NCBI GenBank assembly: GCA_964460785.1
Contig: CAYWQB010000002.1
Span: 65,364 to 129,363, forward strand
DNA length: 64,000 bases
Origin: an uncultured bacterium
GTDB taxonomy: Bacteria; Chlamydiota; Chlamydiia; Chlamydiales; CAYWQB01
Direction: 5' to 3'
This document shows, one piece after another, positions 41,133 to 46,917 of this stretch. Under the pieces are notes generated by a model. The model worked only from the letters and a program-made list of their open reading frames with translations, did no database searches and was not told the origin of the DNA. The translations under genes were made by a program, and so were the position numbers. Position 1 is the stretch's first letter. Every line of letters begins with the position of its first letter.

Positions 41133-41915
41133 TTAAAATAGGTTGGTAAACTCTCCAACATGGGGACGCAAGCGTGCACGAAGACGAATCAAAGCTTTAG
41201 TATGAATTTGTGAGATCCTTGATTCAGTCACTCCCATGATCTGGCCAATTTCTTTTAACATGAGGTTTTCATAGTAATAAAGAACAAGAACTGTTTTCTC
41301 TTGTTCGGGAAGATTATAGACCGCATCTTCTATAAAATCAGCTATTTCCCGCCGGTCGGCAACCTCAAAACTTGTCTTGGCATTCTCATCAGGAATCCGC
41401 TCACTAATGTGGACTCCTGCTGCATCCTCATCAGAGGAACGATCTAAAGAGAGCAGGATAGCAGGACGCACACGGAGCACAAGCTCATCATAACGCTCAA
41501 TTGTTACTCCAAGATCCTTTGCCATCTCTTCATCTGTCGGCTCTCGCCCTAGCTTCTGCTGTAGGCGATGTGTTGCCTCTTCAATCTCATTTGCTTTTTG
41601 ATGGACACTTCTAGGCACCCAATCCAAGGAGCGCATCTCATCGATGATGCTTCCTTTAATCAAAAGTTGTGCATAGGTTTCAAACTTTGCTTTTCGGGAG
41701 GGATCAAATCGTTCTACTGCTTTAATGAGCCCTAAAACTCCCGTAGAATAAAGATCATCTCGCTGTACATGTTTAGGCAATGTGACGGCAAGCCTACCCA
41801 CAACGATCTTCACTAAGTAAAGATAGTGAGTAATGAGGTGGTCTCTTAAGCTCTCTTTTTTTGTACGGAGGTACTCTTTCCACACTTTTTTTATCTTGCC
41901 AGCATCTTCAGCCAT
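41133..41915 (-). CDS. fliA: RNA polymerase sigma-28 factor (FliA/WhiG family)
   Basis: Region 2 (DLYSTGVLGLIKAVERFDPSRKAKFETYAQLLIKGSIIDEMR), region 3 and region 4 (LPEQEKTVLVLYYYENLMLKEIGQIMGVTESRISQIHTKAL). 260 aa. Downstream of flhA, as in chlamydiae. Confidence 0.9.
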   Translation of the reverse strand: MAEDAGKIKKVWKEYLRTKKESLRDHLITHYLYLVKIVVGRLAVTLPKHVQRDDLYSTGVLGLIKAVERFDPSRKAKFETYAQLLIKGSIIDEMRSLDWVPRSVHQKANEIEEATHRLQQKLGREPTDEEMAKDLGVTIERYDELVLRVRPAILLSLDRSSDEDAAGVHISERIPDENAKTSFEVADRREIADFIEDAVYNLPEQEKTVLVLYYYENLMLKEIGQIMGVTESRISQIHTKALIRLRARLRPHVGEFTNLF

Positions 41916-41921
41916 CTCTTA

Positions 41922-42251
41922 CTACCCCCGCATGCCATCTTGCTCTGCTTCACTCTGTTCTATCACCCTTACTGCATCATCGATCGCTTCTACCTCTTCT
42001 AACTCATCTGACCGTGAATAGCCTTTTTTCAATTCTTCTTTTGTGCGCTGCACTTCGGTGGGGAAAACAACCTGCAGATAGAGGTGGCGAAAAATGACTT
42101 GGGATAAGATCCCAACAATCCACATCGTAGCAAGAGCATAAAGCACAGTCACTAACCACCCCTGTCCTGTAAACAAGCTGACTGCTGCCACCAAGCATGT
42201 ACTGATTAGGGTAAATAAAAAGACTAAGATAAAGATGTGCCTTTGATCCAT
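41922..42251 (-). CDS. small membrane protein (2-3 TM, acidic C-terminal tail)
   Basis: 109-aa ORF packed between flhF-like (1-nt gap) and fliA (6-nt gap). No family recognised. Confidence 0.5.
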   Translation of the reverse strand: MDQRHIFILVFLFTLISTCLVAAVSLFTGQGWLVTVLYALATMWIVGILSQVIFRHLYLQVVFPTEVQRTKEELKKGYSRSDELEEVEAIDDAVRVIEQSEAEQDGMRG

Positions 42252-42252
42252 C

Positions 42253-43602
42253 TTATCCTCTCATTTGTACTGTTTGGGAGAGCTCTTGCTTTGCTTCTAA
42301 CCTTTCTTCGAGCAAGATCTTTTTTGCGACCTCTTGACTATCGGCTATTTTCAGTCCTCGATCCAATGAAGAACTAGAAGTTAAATAGCTGAGAGGGAGC
42401 TTTGTCTGATGGCAAAGGTTTGCTAAAATTCCCACTGTCTCCGCACGGTCCATATGAGAAACCATTAAGCTATCTAGAGAGCTTGTCGCTAGCCCTCTCA
42501 GTTGCTGATTTAGATGGTGAAAAGGAGCTGATCCATGCACAACAAAATGACTTGTTACTTCAGGTAAGAGCTTTTGGATTCCTTTTTGTACCTCATGAAA
42601 GGACAGGTCTCCGATGCTTTGGCTTTCCACAGAGATAAAGACAAGGTCTGACACTGCTGCCGCATCGAGCTTCTGGTTCAGCTCTTTTAAGGTTGAGGCT
42701 TGAGAAATGCGAATCCCTTCCTTTGCCAGTTGCTCAACAAAGTGCATGGGCTTTTGGGAGGTGAGCTCCCCCTCTCCGAAGAGGATAATCTCTACTCTTT
42801 TACCTAGAGCCTGGACGTATTGCCTAGCAATGCGTGAGCACAGCATAAACTTTCCAGCCCCGCGCTCTCCATAAACCGCATGAAAGGAGGCTCGATAACG
42901 ATCTAAGCAAATGGGCCCATAGCAGGGAATTAACCGAGCAATTTCCCTCTTAAGAAACTGAAAGCAAGCTGTTCTCTTACTACTTGGTTTTGTTAAGTCA
43001 ATCGCTGGGAACTCTTGACTCATTTTATACTGCAAAGAAATCGCGAGTGGTTGTGAAAAGCCTTTGCGCTGTAAAAACCCCATAAAAGGAGCATCTGGGT
43101 TTTGAGGAGGAGCTCCCATCTCTCGAGCCTCCAAAGTCTCTTCATGTACACGCCGACGCACTTGCTCTTCATAACTACTTGGCTTTGCTAGTTGGGGCCG
43201 CACCTCTTCTACTTGCTCTTTAACCTCAAGCTTCCCTGCACAACGCTGCCGAAGGGCTTCTAAGGCTTTTCTAGAAGCCTCATCATCATTTTCCTGGCTC
43301 TTGTTGTTAGATGCATAAGTTGGTGGTACTGGAGCTATTTTTTCTCGTGCAGCAGAGCTTAAACTCAGTACATCTTCAGTATCCCTAGAGGGAGGCTTGC
43401 TTGCCTGAGGTTTCTCCATACTAGTTTCCTCCGCCTCCTCCTTGGCTGCGGTCACTTCAATCTCCATTCCCTTAGAGAACAATCCTTCTTTCTTCACAGG
43501 GCGTGATAAGAGAATCATCACCTCTTCGCCCATAGCTTGGCGAGCTTTTTCTGTCGCTTCTTGCTCTGTTTTTCCGCGAAATTTCTGTACTTTCATTCTC
43601 AC
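42253..43602 (-). CDS. flhF: FlhF-like SRP-type GTPase homologue with degenerate nucleotide-binding motifs
   Basis: N-terminus MKVQKFRGKTEQEATEKARQAMGEEVMILLSRPVKKEG....EIEVTAA parallels the FlhF B-domain. The C-terminal NG-like domain has GERGAGKF in place of GPTGVGKT. Position is flhA-flhF-...-fliA. Confidence 0.65.
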   Translation of the reverse strand: MRMKVQKFRGKTEQEATEKARQAMGEEVMILLSRPVKKEGLFSKGMEIEVTAAKEEAEETSMEKPQASKPPSRDTEDVLSLSSAAREKIAPVPPTYASNNKSQENDDEASRKALEALRQRCAGKLEVKEQVEEVRPQLAKPSSYEEQVRRRVHEETLEAREMGAPPQNPDAPFMGFLQRKGFSQPLAISLQYKMSQEFPAIDLTKPSSKRTACFQFLKREIARLIPCYGPICLDRYRASFHAVYGERGAGKFMLCSRIARQYVQALGKRVEIILFGEGELTSQKPMHFVEQLAKEGIRISQASTLKELNQKLDAAAVSDLVFISVESQSIGDLSFHEVQKGIQKLLPEVTSHFVVHGSAPFHHLNQQLRGLATSSLDSLMVSHMDRAETVGILANLCHQTKLPLSYLTSSSSLDRGLKIADSQEVAKKILLEERLEAKQELSQTVQMRG

Positions 43603-43612
43603 TTATCCCCAA

Positions 43613-45709
43613 TTAGGACATTAACACATCTGGGGCAATCACCCCGATAGAAACCACTTCCATGTCTGGAACAACCTCACTAAATGAAAGGACCGGCAGT
43701 TTTGGTAAGCTTCTCTCAACCAGCCGCCGAAAGGGTAAACGCAAGCTTGTACTCAGCAAGATGACAGGCTGAACCCCCTCTTGGATTCCCTTTTCTACAA
43801 ATGAGCGGATCGCAGCTGTAACCTTTTTTGTTGTTTCTGGCCGCATAACAATTCTCGAACCAAAGTCACTTTTTTGGATGCTTTCAGAAAGCATTTGTTC
43901 AACCTTTGGGTCAATGGCAATGATATGAAGTGTCCGTTCATCACCACCATACTGCTTAGAGATTGTCCGTGCAAGCCCATGGCGCACATATTCTGTTAAG
44001 AGATCAGAGTCTTGCGTCTGCACGGCATGATCAGCGAGCACCTCTAAGATGGAAGCTATATCCCGAATTGGGATTCGCTCACGCAGTAAATTTTGTAATA
44101 CTTTCAGAATTTGACCAAGAGTCATTTGGTTTGGAATCAATTCTTCGATAACAGCTGACGCATATTCTTTCGCATTTTCGATAAGGCGAGAGACTTCTTG
44201 TCGATTTAACAACTCATAAGCATGAGCATGAATCACTTCCGTAAGGTGTGTTGCTAAAACAGAGAGGGTATCCACTACCGTGTAGCCAGCAGCCTCTGCT
44301 TTTTCCTTATGTGCAGCAGAAATCCACAGAGCTTGCAGGCCAAAAGCAGGTTCAATGGTCTGAATCCCAGGGACGGATACCTCAACACTTCCGGGGTTCA
44401 TTGCTAAAAAGCTATCAAGCTGCAAACTCCCTGCAGCAACCTCTATCCCTTTGATTTTGATGACATAATGGTTTGAATCTAAAACCATATTATCACGGAT
44501 ACGTATGGGAGGCACAACAAGCCCTAACTCTGAGGCTATTTGTCGACGAATCACAGAGATTCTAGAGAGTAGGTCGCCTCCTTGCGCTTGATCCACAAGA
44601 GGAATTAAGCCATAGCCGAGCTCTATCTCCATGGGGTCTACATAGAGAACTTTTTCTACTTCATCATTTGTTGAAGGAGAGCTTTGGGCAGCTTCTGCTC
44701 CAACACCTTCCCTTTCCATCTCTTCAACTTTCTCTGCATTCACCTTCCACAAGAAAAATCCATAAGCACCAATTGCTAAAGACATCGGAATCATGACCAC
44801 CATGGGCATCCCTGGCACAAAGCTAAGGAAAAGCAAAATGGCTGCTGTGATCATGAGAACACGTGGATTATTGAGGAGCTGGTGGTGAAAGGTCTCCCCT
44901 AAAGACTCTTTTGAAGAGGCTCGCGTGACAATAATACCTGCTCCCACAGAGATGAGAAGGGCAGGGATCTGGGACACAAGTCCATCCCCTACTGTAAGAG
45001 TGGTATAGGTTTCCAGCGCTTCATCCCAAGCCATGCCCTTCACAGCCATGCCGATGATGAACCCTCCAAGGAGGTTTACAATCGTAATGATGATCCCAGC
45101 AATGGCATCACCACGCACAAACTTTGAGGCACCATCCATGCTTCCGTAAAAGTCAGCCTCAGCAGTGATTTTATTTCTTCGGTGCTTTGCCTCTTGCTCA
45201 TCAATGATGCCAGCATTTAAATCCGCATCAATACTCATCTGCTTACCTGGCATAGCATCCAGTGTAAAACGTGCGGAGACCTCTGCTATACGCCCTGACC
45301 CCTTGGTAATAACCACGAAGTTAATCACTGTGAGCAGGATAAAAATAATAATCCCGACAACTAAGTTCCCTCCAGTAACGAACTCTCCAAAGGTGCGAAT
45401 GATTTCCCCTGCGCGTGCTTCTGAAAGAATCATTCTCGTTGAGGCGATATTCAAGCCGAGCCGAAAAAGAGTAAGGAACAGTAAGAGCGAGGGAAATGAG
45501 TTAAACTCTAAGCTTTCTTCCACATACATTGTGATGAGTAGAGTTGCCACCGCAAGGACGATATTCACGGAGAGCAGCGAGTCGAGCAAAATAGGAGGTA
45601 GAGGGATAACCAGTAGCAGGATGATACTGACCACAGAAACGGCTAGTATGACATCGCTGTGTCTTTGGAACTTAGAAAATAGGCGGCCTGCGCCTACGGA
45701 GGTGGCCAT
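43613..45709 (-). CDS. flhA: flagellar-type export gate protein FlhA
   Basis: [78 protein letters not shown]. These are FlhA-type signatures, distinct from the SctV copy at 16805. Confidence 0.92.
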   Translation of the reverse strand: [698 protein letters not shown]

Positions 45710-45795: not shown

Positions 45796-46917
45796 TTAAG
45801 GCGTTGGTCCTTGCATTTGAGAGGCTGGGGATTCCTTCTGATTTAAGCGGTAGACATAGGCTAAGACTTCAGCCACAGAGTGATAGAAGTCAGGGGGAAC
45901 ATACATCCCCACATCAATTGTACGGTAAAGTCCTCGTGCCAACGGAGGGTTTTCAACGATGGGAATGTCATGCTCACGAGCCAGTTCTTTGATGGACTCT
46001 GCTAATTTCCTAGCTCCTTTGGCAACACACATAGGCGCACTCATTTTTTGTGCATCATACTTAATAGCAACAGCATAGTGAATTGGATTTGTCACCACAA
46101 CATCTGCATGCTCCACATTTGACTTCATTCTGCTTTGGATAAAAGAGACCATTGCTGAACGAAGGCGGGACTTCACCAAGGGGTCCCCTTCAGACTGCTT
46201 GGACTCATCCTTCACTTCTTGCTTAGTCATTTTCATCTCTTGACGAAAGCGGAACTTTTGAAAAACAAAATCCAACACCCCCACAACATTAAAAATCGCC
46301 GCCACGATGAGGGCCATCCAAAAGACTTCCCACATCAAGTAGTCATAAATTTTCTCTGGGTTGGTCTCCATTAAGCGTGAGATTGTAGGAAGCGAAAAGT
46401 GGATAAACAGGTAAAGAACAACAGCAACGATGAGTAACTTTGCCACCCCAAAGAGCGTTTTCATGACAACTCTTGAGTCAAAAAAACGCTTATAATTCTT
46501 CACATCAAAGATATTGAGCTTATCTAGCTTGGGCTTGAACTTTTCAAAAGTAATAAGCCATCCCATTTGCAGGACATTGGAAAAGATCCCCATAATAAAA
46601 AGGCAAACAAGCAAAGGGGCCATTAAAAGGGCCAAAGCATAGATCCCCTCTCTTCCCCAGTACACAATAGATTCGAAATCACCAAAAGGCTCCATGAGGT
46701 GATTGAAAATCCCTAAAATCAGGTCCCTCAATCGGTCAAAGAAAAACCCTGCTACAAGCAAAAAAAACAGCACGCCAGCAGAAAGCATTAGCCCCATGAT
46801 TAAATCTTGGGACTTCGATACATTTCCTTTCTTACGCGCTTCTTGTAATTTCCGCGGCGTAGCTTCTTCTGTTTTATCTTGCCAATCATCAGCCATAGCT
46901 CGTACAATAGTAGCCAA
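45796..46917 (-). CDS. flhB: flagellar-type export switch protein FlhB
   Basis: DKTEEATPRKLQEARKKGNVSKSQDL N-terminus, four TM, KMTKQEVKDESKQSEGDPLVKSR, cleavage-site region VVTNPIHYAVAIKY. Confidence 0.9.
   Translation of the reverse strand: MATIVRAMADDWQDKTEEATPRKLQEARKKGNVSKSQDLIMGLMLSAGVLFFLLVAGFFFDRLRDLILGIFNHLMEPFGDFESIVYWGREGIYALALLMAPLLVCLFIMGIFSNVLQMGWLITFEKFKPKLDKLNIFDVKNYKRFFDSRVVMKTLFGVAKLLIVAVVLYLFIHFSLPTISRLMETNPEKIYDYLMWEVFWMALIVAAIFNVVGVLDFVFQKFRFRQEMKMTKQEVKDESKQSEGDPLVKSRLRSAMVSFIQSRMKSNVEHADVVVTNPIHYAVAIKYDAQKMSAPMCVAKGARKLAESIKELAREHDIPIVENPPLARGLYRTIDVGMYVPPDFYHSVAEVLAYVYRLNQKESPASQMQGPTP

Follow-up and report, generated by a model that had tools for sequence, protein, structure and literature searches.

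Can an FlhF whose nucleotide-binding motifs have worn away still serve a flagellar system? The question is posed by one gene in a 64,000-nt stretch of contig CAYWQB010000002.1 (positions 65,364 to 129,363 of the forward strand; assembly GCA_964460785.1), here called the window, whose source is an uncultured bacterium assigned by GTDB to Chlamydiota; Chlamydiia; Chlamydiales; CAYWQB01. Textbooks list FlhF as the third SRP-type GTPase, and in model bacteria its GTP binding, its GTP-dependent dimerisation and its FlhG-stimulated hydrolysis are considered central to the site and number of flagella. In Shewanella the rotor protein FliG is the binding partner of the FliG-interacting domain (FID) of FlhF, and both the function of this domain and the need for GTP have been described in model species (PMC11236974, PMC12713375, PMC6092412, PMC12826062). 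With altered G motifs in FlhF, localisation, flagellation or FliG regulation is lost in Vibrio and Pseudomonas (PMC6092412, PMC12713375).

The gene and its operon

The gene belongs to a minus-strand operon with the order flhB-flhA-flhF-(109-aa ORF with two TM segments)-fliA (Table 1). An earlier note on this DNA had placed it after flhA and before fliA; the order stands, while direct adjacency to fliA does not, as the small membrane-protein gene intervenes. This synteny is common to the present locus and eight other chlamydial loci, and the small TM gene separates flhF from fliA in every one of the others examined (8/8). Its ATG lies 1 nt past the flhF stop, a spacing suggestive of translational coupling. 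The slot that it occupies is the place of flhG in other bacteria. FipA was considered as an identity for the 109-aa protein and rejected: the protein has no family match in Pfam and TIGR profile searches, and DUF2802 was not found in the genome.

Two in-frame starts are available for flhF. A GTG at 43602 would give 449 aa (open frame 42253-43602), whereas the ATG at 43596, which we consider the likely start, gives 447. The ATG is preceded by a GGGGA Shine-Dalgarno-like run about 9 nt upstream, relatives begin with MI(I/V)KK, and the database copy of the protein (P0002) has 447 aa. The reading frame is intact, as had been claimed, but on the minus strand and with 447 codons more likely than the 449 first counted.

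By descent the gene is an FlhF orthologue. The TIGR03499 FlhF profile matches it with an E-value of 8.8e-19 but with 68.6 bits, below the cut-off of 174.15, and Pfam SRP54 (PF00448) gives 22.4 bits, just under the gathering score of 22.7; for a canonical chlamydial FlhF the SRP54 score is 136.8 bits. Falling under both cut-offs sets the protein apart from canonical FlhF, with which it shares its place in the fliA operon, immediately behind flhA, and which provides its best sequence and fold matches. An exhaustive homologue search returned 119 proteins at E <= 1e-10 and, among the best 150 matches listed, those with source names are all annotated as FlhF. A word-indexed search returned nothing beyond the protein itself, and a profile search yielded few proteins and no further eroded members. 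When a second, canonical FlhF paralogue was sought in the genome, only Ffh and FtsY were found besides this gene; both are canonical, with GxxGSGKT, DTFR, DTAGR and TKxD kept.

The remaining flagellar genes are intact: the genome has FliF, FliG (contig C3, about 115.8-116.6 kb), FliM, MotB, FliD, flagellin and five rod/hook genes, none of them interrupted by an internal stop, and with so complete-looking a gene set the flagellum is plausibly functional. The FlhG side of the switch differs from that accompanying canonical FlhF, as there is no flhG downstream and the DQAxxLR activator motif is absent from all MinD-type ORFs of the genome. The sole FlhG/FleN-like ATPase is encoded at a distance of about 170 kb, where it follows a sigma-54 response regulator, and no more than 21 residues precede its P-loop. 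Five relatives likewise have no flhG after flhF and no DQAxxLR activator helix. The idea that motif erosion is tied to the loss of FlhG was rejected, since an FlhG/FleN-like ATPase exists and the activator helix is also absent in relatives whose FlhF keeps G1, G3 and G4.

Table 1. The flhF operon in the window, the domains of the FlhF orthologue and the positions of its five G motifs.
Feature	Position	Strand	Basis or remark
flhB	45796..46917	(-)	TIGR00328 368.4 bits (cut-off 349)
flhA (flagellar export gate)	43613..45709	(-)	TIGR01398 865.8 bits (cut-off 772); 16-nt gap upstream of flhF
flhF orthologue, 447 aa	42253..43596	(-)	likely start ATG at 43596; TAA stop 42253-42255; TIGR03499, PDB sequence and fold matches
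109-aa two-TM protein gene	41922..42251	(-)	between flhF and fliA
fliA (sigma-28)	41133..41915	(-)	TIGR02479 (FliA_WhiG) 258.2 bits (cut-off 189.6)
FID, residues 1-52, strand-helix-strand-strand	43441..43596	(-)	pLDDT; Foldseek 9EN1
Linker, residues 53-165, mostly disordered	43102..43440	(-)	pLDDT <50 at 57-104, 121-139, 159-165
N (helical) subdomain of NG, residues 166-235	42892..43101	(-)	helices 170-177, 182-195, 206-222; pLDDT 83-94
G subdomain, residues 236-430, SRP-type GTPase fold, eroded motifs	42307..42891	(-)	Foldseek FlhF; Pfam SRP54 at residues 242-430
G1/P-loop remnant GERGAGKF (norm GxTGVGKT)	42847..42870	(-)	Gly-x-x-Gly-x-Gly-Lys kept; Mg-binding Thr/Ser replaced by Phe
G2 position LFGEGELTSQKP	42748..42783	(-)	no Asp, no Arg/Lys; multiple alignments
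G3 position DLVFISVESQS (norm DLxLIDTAGRS)	42616..42648	(-)	Asp and Gly of DTAG both lost
G4 position SHMDRA (norm TKLDET)	42442..42459	(-)	Lys lost, Asp383 kept
G5 position TSSSSLDRGLKIAD	42340..42381	(-)	Gly and Pro of GQxxPxD lost; following LKIAD kept

Domain architecture and predicted fold

The protein has the same B(FID)-linker-NG architecture as canonical FlhF (B. subtilis 2PX0/2PX3; S. putrefaciens 8R9R for NG and 9EN1 for the FID; TIGR03499). In the AF2 model the FID has a pLDDT above 90 (89.8 when modelled alone) and is built of a strand (2-8), a helix (11-22) and two further strands (27-37 and 42-52). Foldseek against the PDB placed six chains of 9EN1 ('FliG interacting domain of SpFlhF', S. 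putrefaciens) at the top, with a probability of 0.97-0.99 and a TM-score of 0.68-0.75; the small size of the domain accounts for the weak E-values (0.07-0.24). A PDB sequence search with the FID alone as query gave no match, whereas the fold search did. The FlhF-like character of the N-terminal ~55 aa, first recognised from the sequence, is thereby confirmed. A metagenome scan with this protein and its nearest relative, which is also eroded (see below), gave matches through the FID only, at four high-GC non-chlamydial loci with the order flhA-flhF-flhG-fliA; the FID is 44-48% identical to the FIDs from these canonical flhF-flhG loci.

Within the linker, a helix at approximately residues 103-125 (43222-43290) bears the block KALEALRQRCAGKLEV, which in a pairwise alignment is nearly conserved in the 39%-identical orthologue. 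The N subdomain ends in the clade-specific block GPICLDRYR. The NG domain as a whole is modelled by AF2 with a pLDDT of about 90, and its best Foldseek matches in the PDB are the FlhF structures 2PX0 (E 3.2e-15) and 8R9R (E 4.1e-14), both with a target TM-score of 0.80 and ahead of Ffh/FtsY. The structure prediction that the earlier note had called for thus returned a confident NG fold closest to FlhF, and with these fold matches and the TIGR03499 E-value, homology to SRP-type NG domains, whose absence would have spoken against the note, is detected.

Erosion of the G motifs

The motif register was set by pairwise HMMER alignments to the FlhF structures 8R9R and 2PX0 and by multiple alignments with 7, 160 and 30 homologues, and the coordinates were re-translated. 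No other register restores any G motif, so that the apparent erosion does not come from mis-registration. The alignments to both structures and to the homologues agree with the first reading of G1 as GERGAGKF with its Mg-binding Thr lost. They also bear out the absence of a DTxR-like G2: LFGEGELTSQKP, which has neither Asp nor Arg, aligns where SLDxxKxGAxEQ or TxDTYRIAAxEQ is the norm. DLVFISVESQS indeed stands in place of G3, and SHMDR in place of G4, with the Lys lost though the Asp is kept. The closing GQ..PeD motif is missing as reported, TSSSSLDRGLKIAD lying at G5 and reading TSSSSLDRG against TxGQxxPxD. Canonical FlhF thus differs from this protein at all five G motifs.

The nearest relative is P0003 (locus L016), a syntenic metagenome gene whose product is 39% identical (E 5e-73). 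Its G1 reads GDQGSGKF, sharing 'GKF' with the present protein, and it has neither G2 nor G3, the G3 position being occupied by LCYER. G1, G2 and G3 are lost in both eroded proteins, and the G4 Lys and G5 additionally in the present one. A Glu at the third G3 position is common to the two (SVES / CYER), and GxxGxGK and the G4 Asp are conserved between them across 60% divergence. Gly243, Gly246, Gly248, Lys249 and Asp383 are invariant in the alignments that include both eroded proteins (Asp383 in alignment A2).

Among the residues that have gone, the Thr of G1, the Asp and Arg of G2 and the Asp and Gly of G3 are those that coordinate Mg2+ and the gamma-phosphate, and the Lys of G4 belongs to the guanine clamp. 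Judged from its sequence, the protein should therefore be hydrolysis-dead, and the GTP-dependent head-to-tail homodimer is probably unable to form. Phosphate or nucleotide binding may persist through the GxxGxGK and the G4 Asp that both eroded proteins conserve, and the shared Glu could be a catalytic or Mg-binding residue that has migrated.

These remnants lend some weight to a rival reading, that of a working nucleotide-dependent switch in which the remnant P-loop and the G4 Asp bind nucleotide and hydrolysis is either carried out by migrated residues or dispensed with, in a permanently bound, 'always on' FlhF. The five invariant residues, the Glu found in both eroded proteins and the confidently predicted NG fold are consistent with it. 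We nevertheless regard it as unlikely: both proteins carry a bulky Phe in place of the Mg-coordinating Thr, G2, the Asp and Gly of G3 and the Lys of G4 have been lost, the composite site of SRP-type dimers surrounds two Mg-GTP molecules (PMC12826062), and the genome is without the activator helix.

Selection and comparison with other chlamydiae

Both eroded orthologues are intact ORFs of 425-447 codons. Identity between them is 49% in the FID, 46% in the N subdomain and 37% in the G domain, with conserved blocks in the FID, the linker helix and the NG domain. The lower figure for the G domain relative to the FID is, from these identities, also what relaxed constraint would be expected to produce. 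Non-synonymous sites differ less than synonymous ones (pN 0.45 vs pS ~0.75, range 0.71-0.81, saturated). The dN/dS check for purifying selection proposed earlier could be carried this far and no further: with dS saturated, a proper ratio is not calculable and only a pN well below pS is stated, and the test is a coarse one, the eroded clade consisting of two known members. The shared erosion in P0003 and the saturated synonymous sites together indicate that the dead site has long been kept under selection. The orthologue comparison thus upholds the earlier view of an FlhF kept intact with eroded motifs, a syntenic gene sharing the erosion at this distance and the fold being predicted at a pLDDT of about 90.

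We compared the protein with about 30 FlhF-like ORFs drawn from 400 genomes within its order. G1 (GxxGxGK[ST]) is kept in all of them and a TKxDE G4 in nearly all, and the G3 Gly is lost in several; joint loss of G1, G3 and G4 is confined to the present genome. Other flagellated environmental chlamydiae share with it the flhA-flhF-small TM gene-fliA operon, the FID and the clade in the NG tree, where the eroded pair nests inside chlamydial FlhF. Unlike it, they keep G1 (GxxGVGKT), G3 (DTxG), G4 (TKLDET) and mostly G5, and only their G2 is off the norm, with Lys for Arg. Between this genome and other chlamydial families, FliA identity is 55-60%, which is those families' mutual range, whereas the FlhF NG domain of this genome is 21-27% identical to theirs against 32-54% among themselves. 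On these sequence comparisons, accelerated evolution is specific to FlhF, by contrast with FliA.

The fate of flhF varies among chlamydiae. The gene is split into two ORFs in one genome (G044), carries an in-frame TAA in another (G292) and is entirely lost from many. One family (f30) has an NG-only FlhF without a FID, encoded between flhA and fliA. The eroded FlhF homologues P0025 and P0061 lie in truA-divergent flhB-flhA-flhF loci without fliA and the small TM gene, which indicates that FlhA and FlhF stay paired when the rest of the operon is lost.

Could the eroded gene be a decaying relic, its function lost or dispensable and its ORF intact by chance or for the sake of translational coupling in the operon? 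An NG domain evolving faster than in other chlamydial families would fit decay, as would the split or stop-containing flhF of other lineages and the many chlamydiae without any flhF. We think this very unlikely, as both orthologues have remained intact despite saturated synonymous sites, their 39% identity far exceeds the expectation from neutral decay, the fold is predicted with high confidence, conserved blocks run through the FID, linker helix and NG domain, and the remaining flagellar gene set is intact. Likewise very unlikely, in our judgement, is redeployment away from flagellar placement, for instance as an accessory of the FlhA/FlhB gate or in a non-flagellar type III system, with the name FlhF denoting descent and not function: the loci of P0025 and P0061 and the FID-less FlhF of family f30 are in keeping with it, but this genome keeps the FID and a complete-looking flagellar gene set that includes FliG and FliF, and the gene sits in the fliA operon.

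Discussion

An FlhF that is intact, folded and under selection despite its eroded motifs probably works here without the textbook GTP switch. We consider it fairly likely that it is a pseudo-GTPase acting as a constitutive FliG-binding scaffold with no nucleotide cycle. In such a scaffold the FID would keep FliG ready to be handed to FliF where the basal body is forming, at a site adjoining the FlhA/FlhB export gate, and the NG domain would be a structural or docking module only. A possible partner for the NG domain would be the co-translated product of the small membrane-protein gene that follows flhF.

The features by which pseudoGTPases are recognised, a kept fold, lost motifs and a selected sequence, are found together in this protein, the selection test being coarse with two sequences. 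Known pseudoGTPases, such as the p190RhoGAP domains, AAGAB and some septins (PMC5593906, PMC12490416, PMC10731463), likewise keep a GTPase fold with degenerate motifs, are conserved and presumably make protein-protein contacts; unlike this FlhF, they are not members of the SRP family. Our literature searches found no work joining FlhF with the term pseudoGTPase, and none linking FlhF with chlamydiae apart from one general review. The founding paper on the flagellar gene sets of environmental chlamydiae, Collingro et al. 2017 (PMC5604735), does not name FlhF in its main text.

A broader proposal, which we hold to be doubtful and put forward tentatively, is that chlamydiae dismantled the FlhF/FlhG switch stepwise. 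On this view, in all flagellated chlamydiae examined a small two-TM protein fills the place of flhG behind flhF, the FlhG/FleN-like ATPase of these genomes is devoid of the activator helix and adjoins a sigma-54 regulator, and their FlhF has Lys for the G2 Arg. These changes would have been followed by the death of the nucleotide pocket in this lineage, leaving FlhF to recruit FliG constitutively while anchored in the membrane via its TM partner. If this were true, chlamydiae would have a protein-only replacement for a GTP-timed placement system.

The scaffold reading itself has a wider bearing. A natural FlhF with a FliG-binding head and an NG fold, predicted to be without nucleotide chemistry, would mean that the scaffold role is separable from the switch role. 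The rest of the flagellar gene set around it is intact, the protein is conserved over a long divergence, and it lends itself directly to studies of the roles of the NG domain beyond GTP hydrolysis. It also adds to the scant knowledge of the flagella of environmental chlamydiae.

Identity of the Gene and Register of Its Motifs

The gene is an FlhF orthologue. TIGR03499, the NCBIfam FlhF model, matched residues 3–273 (E 8.8e-19) at 68.6 bits, far under its 174-bit cut-off, and Pfam SRP54 matched residues 242–430 at 22.4 bits, narrowly missing the gathering score of 22.7. The sole PDB sequence matches were FlhF proteins, S. putrefaciens 8R9R (E 0.002) and B. subtilis 2PX0 (E 0.017). Their alignments placed GERGAGKF at G1, the G3 segment on IDTAG and SHMDR on TKLDE, and an identical register was obtained from MAFFT or HMM alignments with seven same-order relatives, 160 proteins from an exhaustive search and 30 order-wide FlhF-like ORFs. 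The earlier note had described G1 to G5 of the SRP-type GTPase (NG) domain as eroded, and all its motif statements hold in this register. None of the residues with a known role in Mg2+ or gamma-phosphate binding is left, and the G4 Lys is lost as well.

GTP-binding motifs of the studied FlhF and of its nearest relative, the metagenome protein P0003
Motif	Canonical	Studied FlhF	P0003
G1	GxxGxGK[ST]	GERGAGKF, Thr to Phe	GDQGSGKF, Thr to Phe
G2	Asp and Arg	Neither present	Absent
G3	DxxG	Asp and Gly both lost	LCYER
G4	[TN]KxD	Lys to His, Asp retained	TRLD
G5	GQxxPxD	Gly and Pro gone	GYSVPED, still present

Gene Start and Flagellar Context

The frame is open on the minus strand, with the 449 codons of the earlier note when counted from GTG; the flhA–flhF junction reads TAA(flhA)-ttGGGGAtaagtgagaATGAAAGTACAG. 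We prefer the start at ATG 43596 (447 aa), because a Shine-Dalgarno-like run lies ~9 nt upstream of it, the FlhF of relatives begins with MI(I/V)KK and the database copy of the protein has 447 aa. The proposed order, after flhA and before fliA, was right, except that a small two-TM ORF stands between flhF and fliA.

The set of flagellar genes appears to be complete, with no interrupted members. It includes a cluster of FliF (557 aa), FliG (354 aa) and a FliI-like ATPase on contig C3, FliM (306 aa) adjoining MotB on contig C2, five rod/hook-family genes, one encoding a 955-aa hook-like protein, FliD (628 aa) and, 7 kb from the flhF locus, flagellin.

Features of the flhF locus and related genes (window positions unless a contig is named)
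Feature	Position	Strand	Remarks
flhB		minus	TIGR00328, 368 bits, above cut-off
flhA		minus	TIGR01398, 866 bits, above cut-off
flhF	42253–43596	minus	Between flhA and the two-TM ORF
Linker-helix block of FlhF	43222–43290	minus	KALEALRQRCAGKLEV
Two-TM ORF, 109 aa	41922–42251	minus	ATG 1 nt past flhF stop
fliA		minus	TIGR02479, 258 bits
Sua5/YrdC-like gene		minus	After fliA
Flagellin, 567 aa	33854–35557	minus	Ordinary N- and C-terminal helical regions, long central insert
Acidic ORF, 190 aa	33174–33746	minus	After flagellin; no family match
FlhG/FleN-like ATPase	C2:276305–277366	plus	Outside the window, ~170 kb from flhF

Predicted Structure

An AlphaFold2 model built from a 15-sequence alignment comprises a compact N-terminal strand-helix-strand-strand domain (residues 1–52, pLDDT > 90), a largely disordered linker (residues 57–165) and an NG domain (residues 166–430, pLDDT ~90). 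Foldseek against the PDB ranked FlhF 2PX0 (E 3e-15) and 8R9R (E 4e-14) at the top, each with a target TM of 0.80, and Ffh and FtsY lower. When the N-terminal 56 residues were modelled alone (pLDDT 89.8), the six best PDB matches were chains of 9EN1, the "FliG interacting domain of SpFlhF (FID)", with probability 0.97–0.99 and TM 0.68–0.75; their E-values were weak, as expected for a domain of only ~50 residues. The studied FID is 44–48% identical to those of ordinary flhF-flhG loci. These results bear out the FlhF-like N-terminus recognised earlier, and both the FID and NG folds are retained in the models.

Specificity of the Erosion

The genome encodes exactly three SRP-type GTPase ORFs, and the other two are canonical: Ffh (GLQGSGKT, LDTAGR) and FtsY (GINGSGKT, DTFR, IDTAGR, TKTD). 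A profile search of 400 same-order genomes gave FlhF-level matches in 14, in addition to short NG-only versions in one family, f30. All 30 extracted FlhF-like ORFs keep G1 as GxxGxGK[ST] and have a G4 of TKxDE or a near variant; the G3 Gly is already missing in several, and in this order-wide search the joint loss of G1, G3 and G4 occurred only in the studied genome. SRP54 scores fall from 136.8 bits for a canonical chlamydial FlhF to 49.5, 45.2 and 30.1 for other eroded proteins and 22.4 here. FliA is 55–60% identical to that of seven other families, which among themselves share 52–68%, whereas the FlhF NG domain shares 21–27% with the same families (32–54% among themselves); the lineage is therefore not fast-evolving overall, but its FlhF NG domain is.

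Flagellated chlamydiae share an FlhF G2 of the form LDxxKxGAxEQ, with Lys replacing the Arg that other FlhFs have in DTYRIAA (loci L002–L008 and L025–L033; proteins P0004–P0053). Many members of this clade have no G2 at all, yet retain G1, G3 and G4. In the NG tree the studied FlhF and P0003 are nested within this presumed chlamydial clade, grouping with other long-branched, partly eroded proteins. Two of the eroded proteins, P0025 (L059; GLSGSEKT/IDFA/TKWYES) and P0061 (L060/L061; SSSRTDKK/TGFNET), come from flhB-flhA-flhF loci without fliA and the TM gene and with a divergent truA neighbour, as in the window; FlhA and FlhF apparently stay paired there even though the operon has lost its other members. 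In f30 (L038–L054), ~23 genomes carry an FlhF homologue of ~275 aa, NG only and without FID, with canonical G1, G3 and G4; its gene sits between flhA and fliA, and the small TM gene is missing there. In two other genomes flhF is apparently broken, split into ORFs of 364 and 168 aa (L036, G044) or interrupted by an in-frame TAA (L048, G292). As these partly eroded, FID-less and broken versions show, chlamydial FlhF is evolutionarily labile, and the studied genome is the extreme case still in full flagellar context.

Retention Versus Decay

An exhaustive HMMER search recovered a single protein that is far more similar than the rest, P0003 (425 aa, E 5e-73, 39–40% identity), from a 3.7-kb metagenome contig (L016, GCA_041294365.1) that matches the studied locus in order: flhA end, flhF, a 109-aa gene, fliA (260 aa) and Sua5. 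Between the two loci, identity is 73% for FliA, 65% for the FlhA C-terminus, 50% for the TM gene and 35% for Sua5; within FlhF it is 49% for the FID, 46% for the N subdomain, 37% for the G subdomain and 32% for the linker. For the two flhF genes, pN is 0.45 against a saturated pS of 0.75, and both ORFs are intact. Judged from these sequences, two intact eroded ORFs after saturating synonymous change are not a case of neutral decay, and the eroded FlhF has been retained over the long term. The constraint on the G subdomain is nevertheless weaker than in canonical relatives: NG identity is 40% where FliA identity is 72%, versus 46–54% in canonical pairs with FliA at 64–68%.

Blocks common to both proteins include KALEALRxRxAGKLEV (linker), GPICLDRYR (before strand 1), G..G.GKF, SLDSL.V, LC.QTK.PLSYL and LKIAD.QE..KKILL. 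Although P0003 is only 39% identical overall, it carries nearly the same linker-helix block in an otherwise disordered linker, which suggests a clade-specific interaction site.

The flhG Position

According to a review, wherever the pair occurs flhG lies directly downstream of flhF, and the N-terminal DQAxxLR helix of FlhG supplies the co-catalytic Gln (PMC12826062). In contrast, flhF is followed here and in 8/8 other chlamydial loci examined by a gene for a small two-TM protein; the homologues, 107–134 aa and 34–50% identical, all lie between flhF and fliA. In the 109-aa protein, whose tail is acidic, two TM helices are predicted. Neither Pfam nor NCBIfam gave a family match, and the protein is not DUF2802/FipA; we regard it as a candidate membrane partner of FlhF.

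The single FlhG/FleN-like MinD-type ATPase of the genome best matched FlhG 4RZ2/4RZ3 (2e-25) and FleN 5J1J in the PDB, with MinD at only 7e-13. At most 21 residues precede its P-loop, it has no activator helix, and DQAxxLR was found in no MinD-type ORF of the genome. Its gene directly follows those of a sensor kinase and of a sigma-54-type response regulator, as in five relatives (L017–L021), an arrangement that recalls the FleN–FleQ pairing; the target of the ATPase may be sigma-54-dependent transcription and not FlhF. Because the two-TM gene fills the flhG slot and the ATPase lacks the DQAxxLR helix here, with the same arrangement in five relatives, the canonical FlhG activator is missing from flagellated chlamydiae in general.

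Proposed Function and Significance

From the motif loss we infer that this FlhF does not hydrolyse GTP, and the GTP-dependent homodimer is probably absent. The earlier suggestion of a hydrolysis-dead FlhF kept as an intact ORF agrees with the verified register and the intact P0003 orthologue. The remnant P-loop and the G4 Asp may still bind a nucleotide; the Glu conserved at the third position of G3 might be a partner of the P-loop Lys or a ligand that has migrated. The FID of Shewanella FlhF binds FliG-MC, lets FliG engage FliF and blocks FliM/N (Dornes et al., PMC11236974). The studied FlhF probably acts as a constitutive scaffold, its FID handing FliG over to FliF close to the FlhA/FlhB gate and its NG domain serving as a docking module to which the translationally coupled small membrane protein perhaps binds.

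Collingro et al. 2017 (PMC5604735) make no mention of FlhF in their main text. Our literature search returned no paper linking FlhF with pseudoGTPase terms, and FlhF with chlamydiae in only one general review, which is not proof of novelty. In Vibrio, mutating the FlhF motifs abolishes polar localisation and flagellation (PMC6092412), and in P. aeruginosa the FliG interaction of FlhF is regulated by GTP binding (PMC12713375); from model organisms one would therefore not expect a flagellated organism to carry a naturally dead FlhF site. Because the activator is missing clade-wide and chlamydial FlhFs share the G2 Lys in place of Arg, the erosion appears to be the end of a trend and not an isolated accident.
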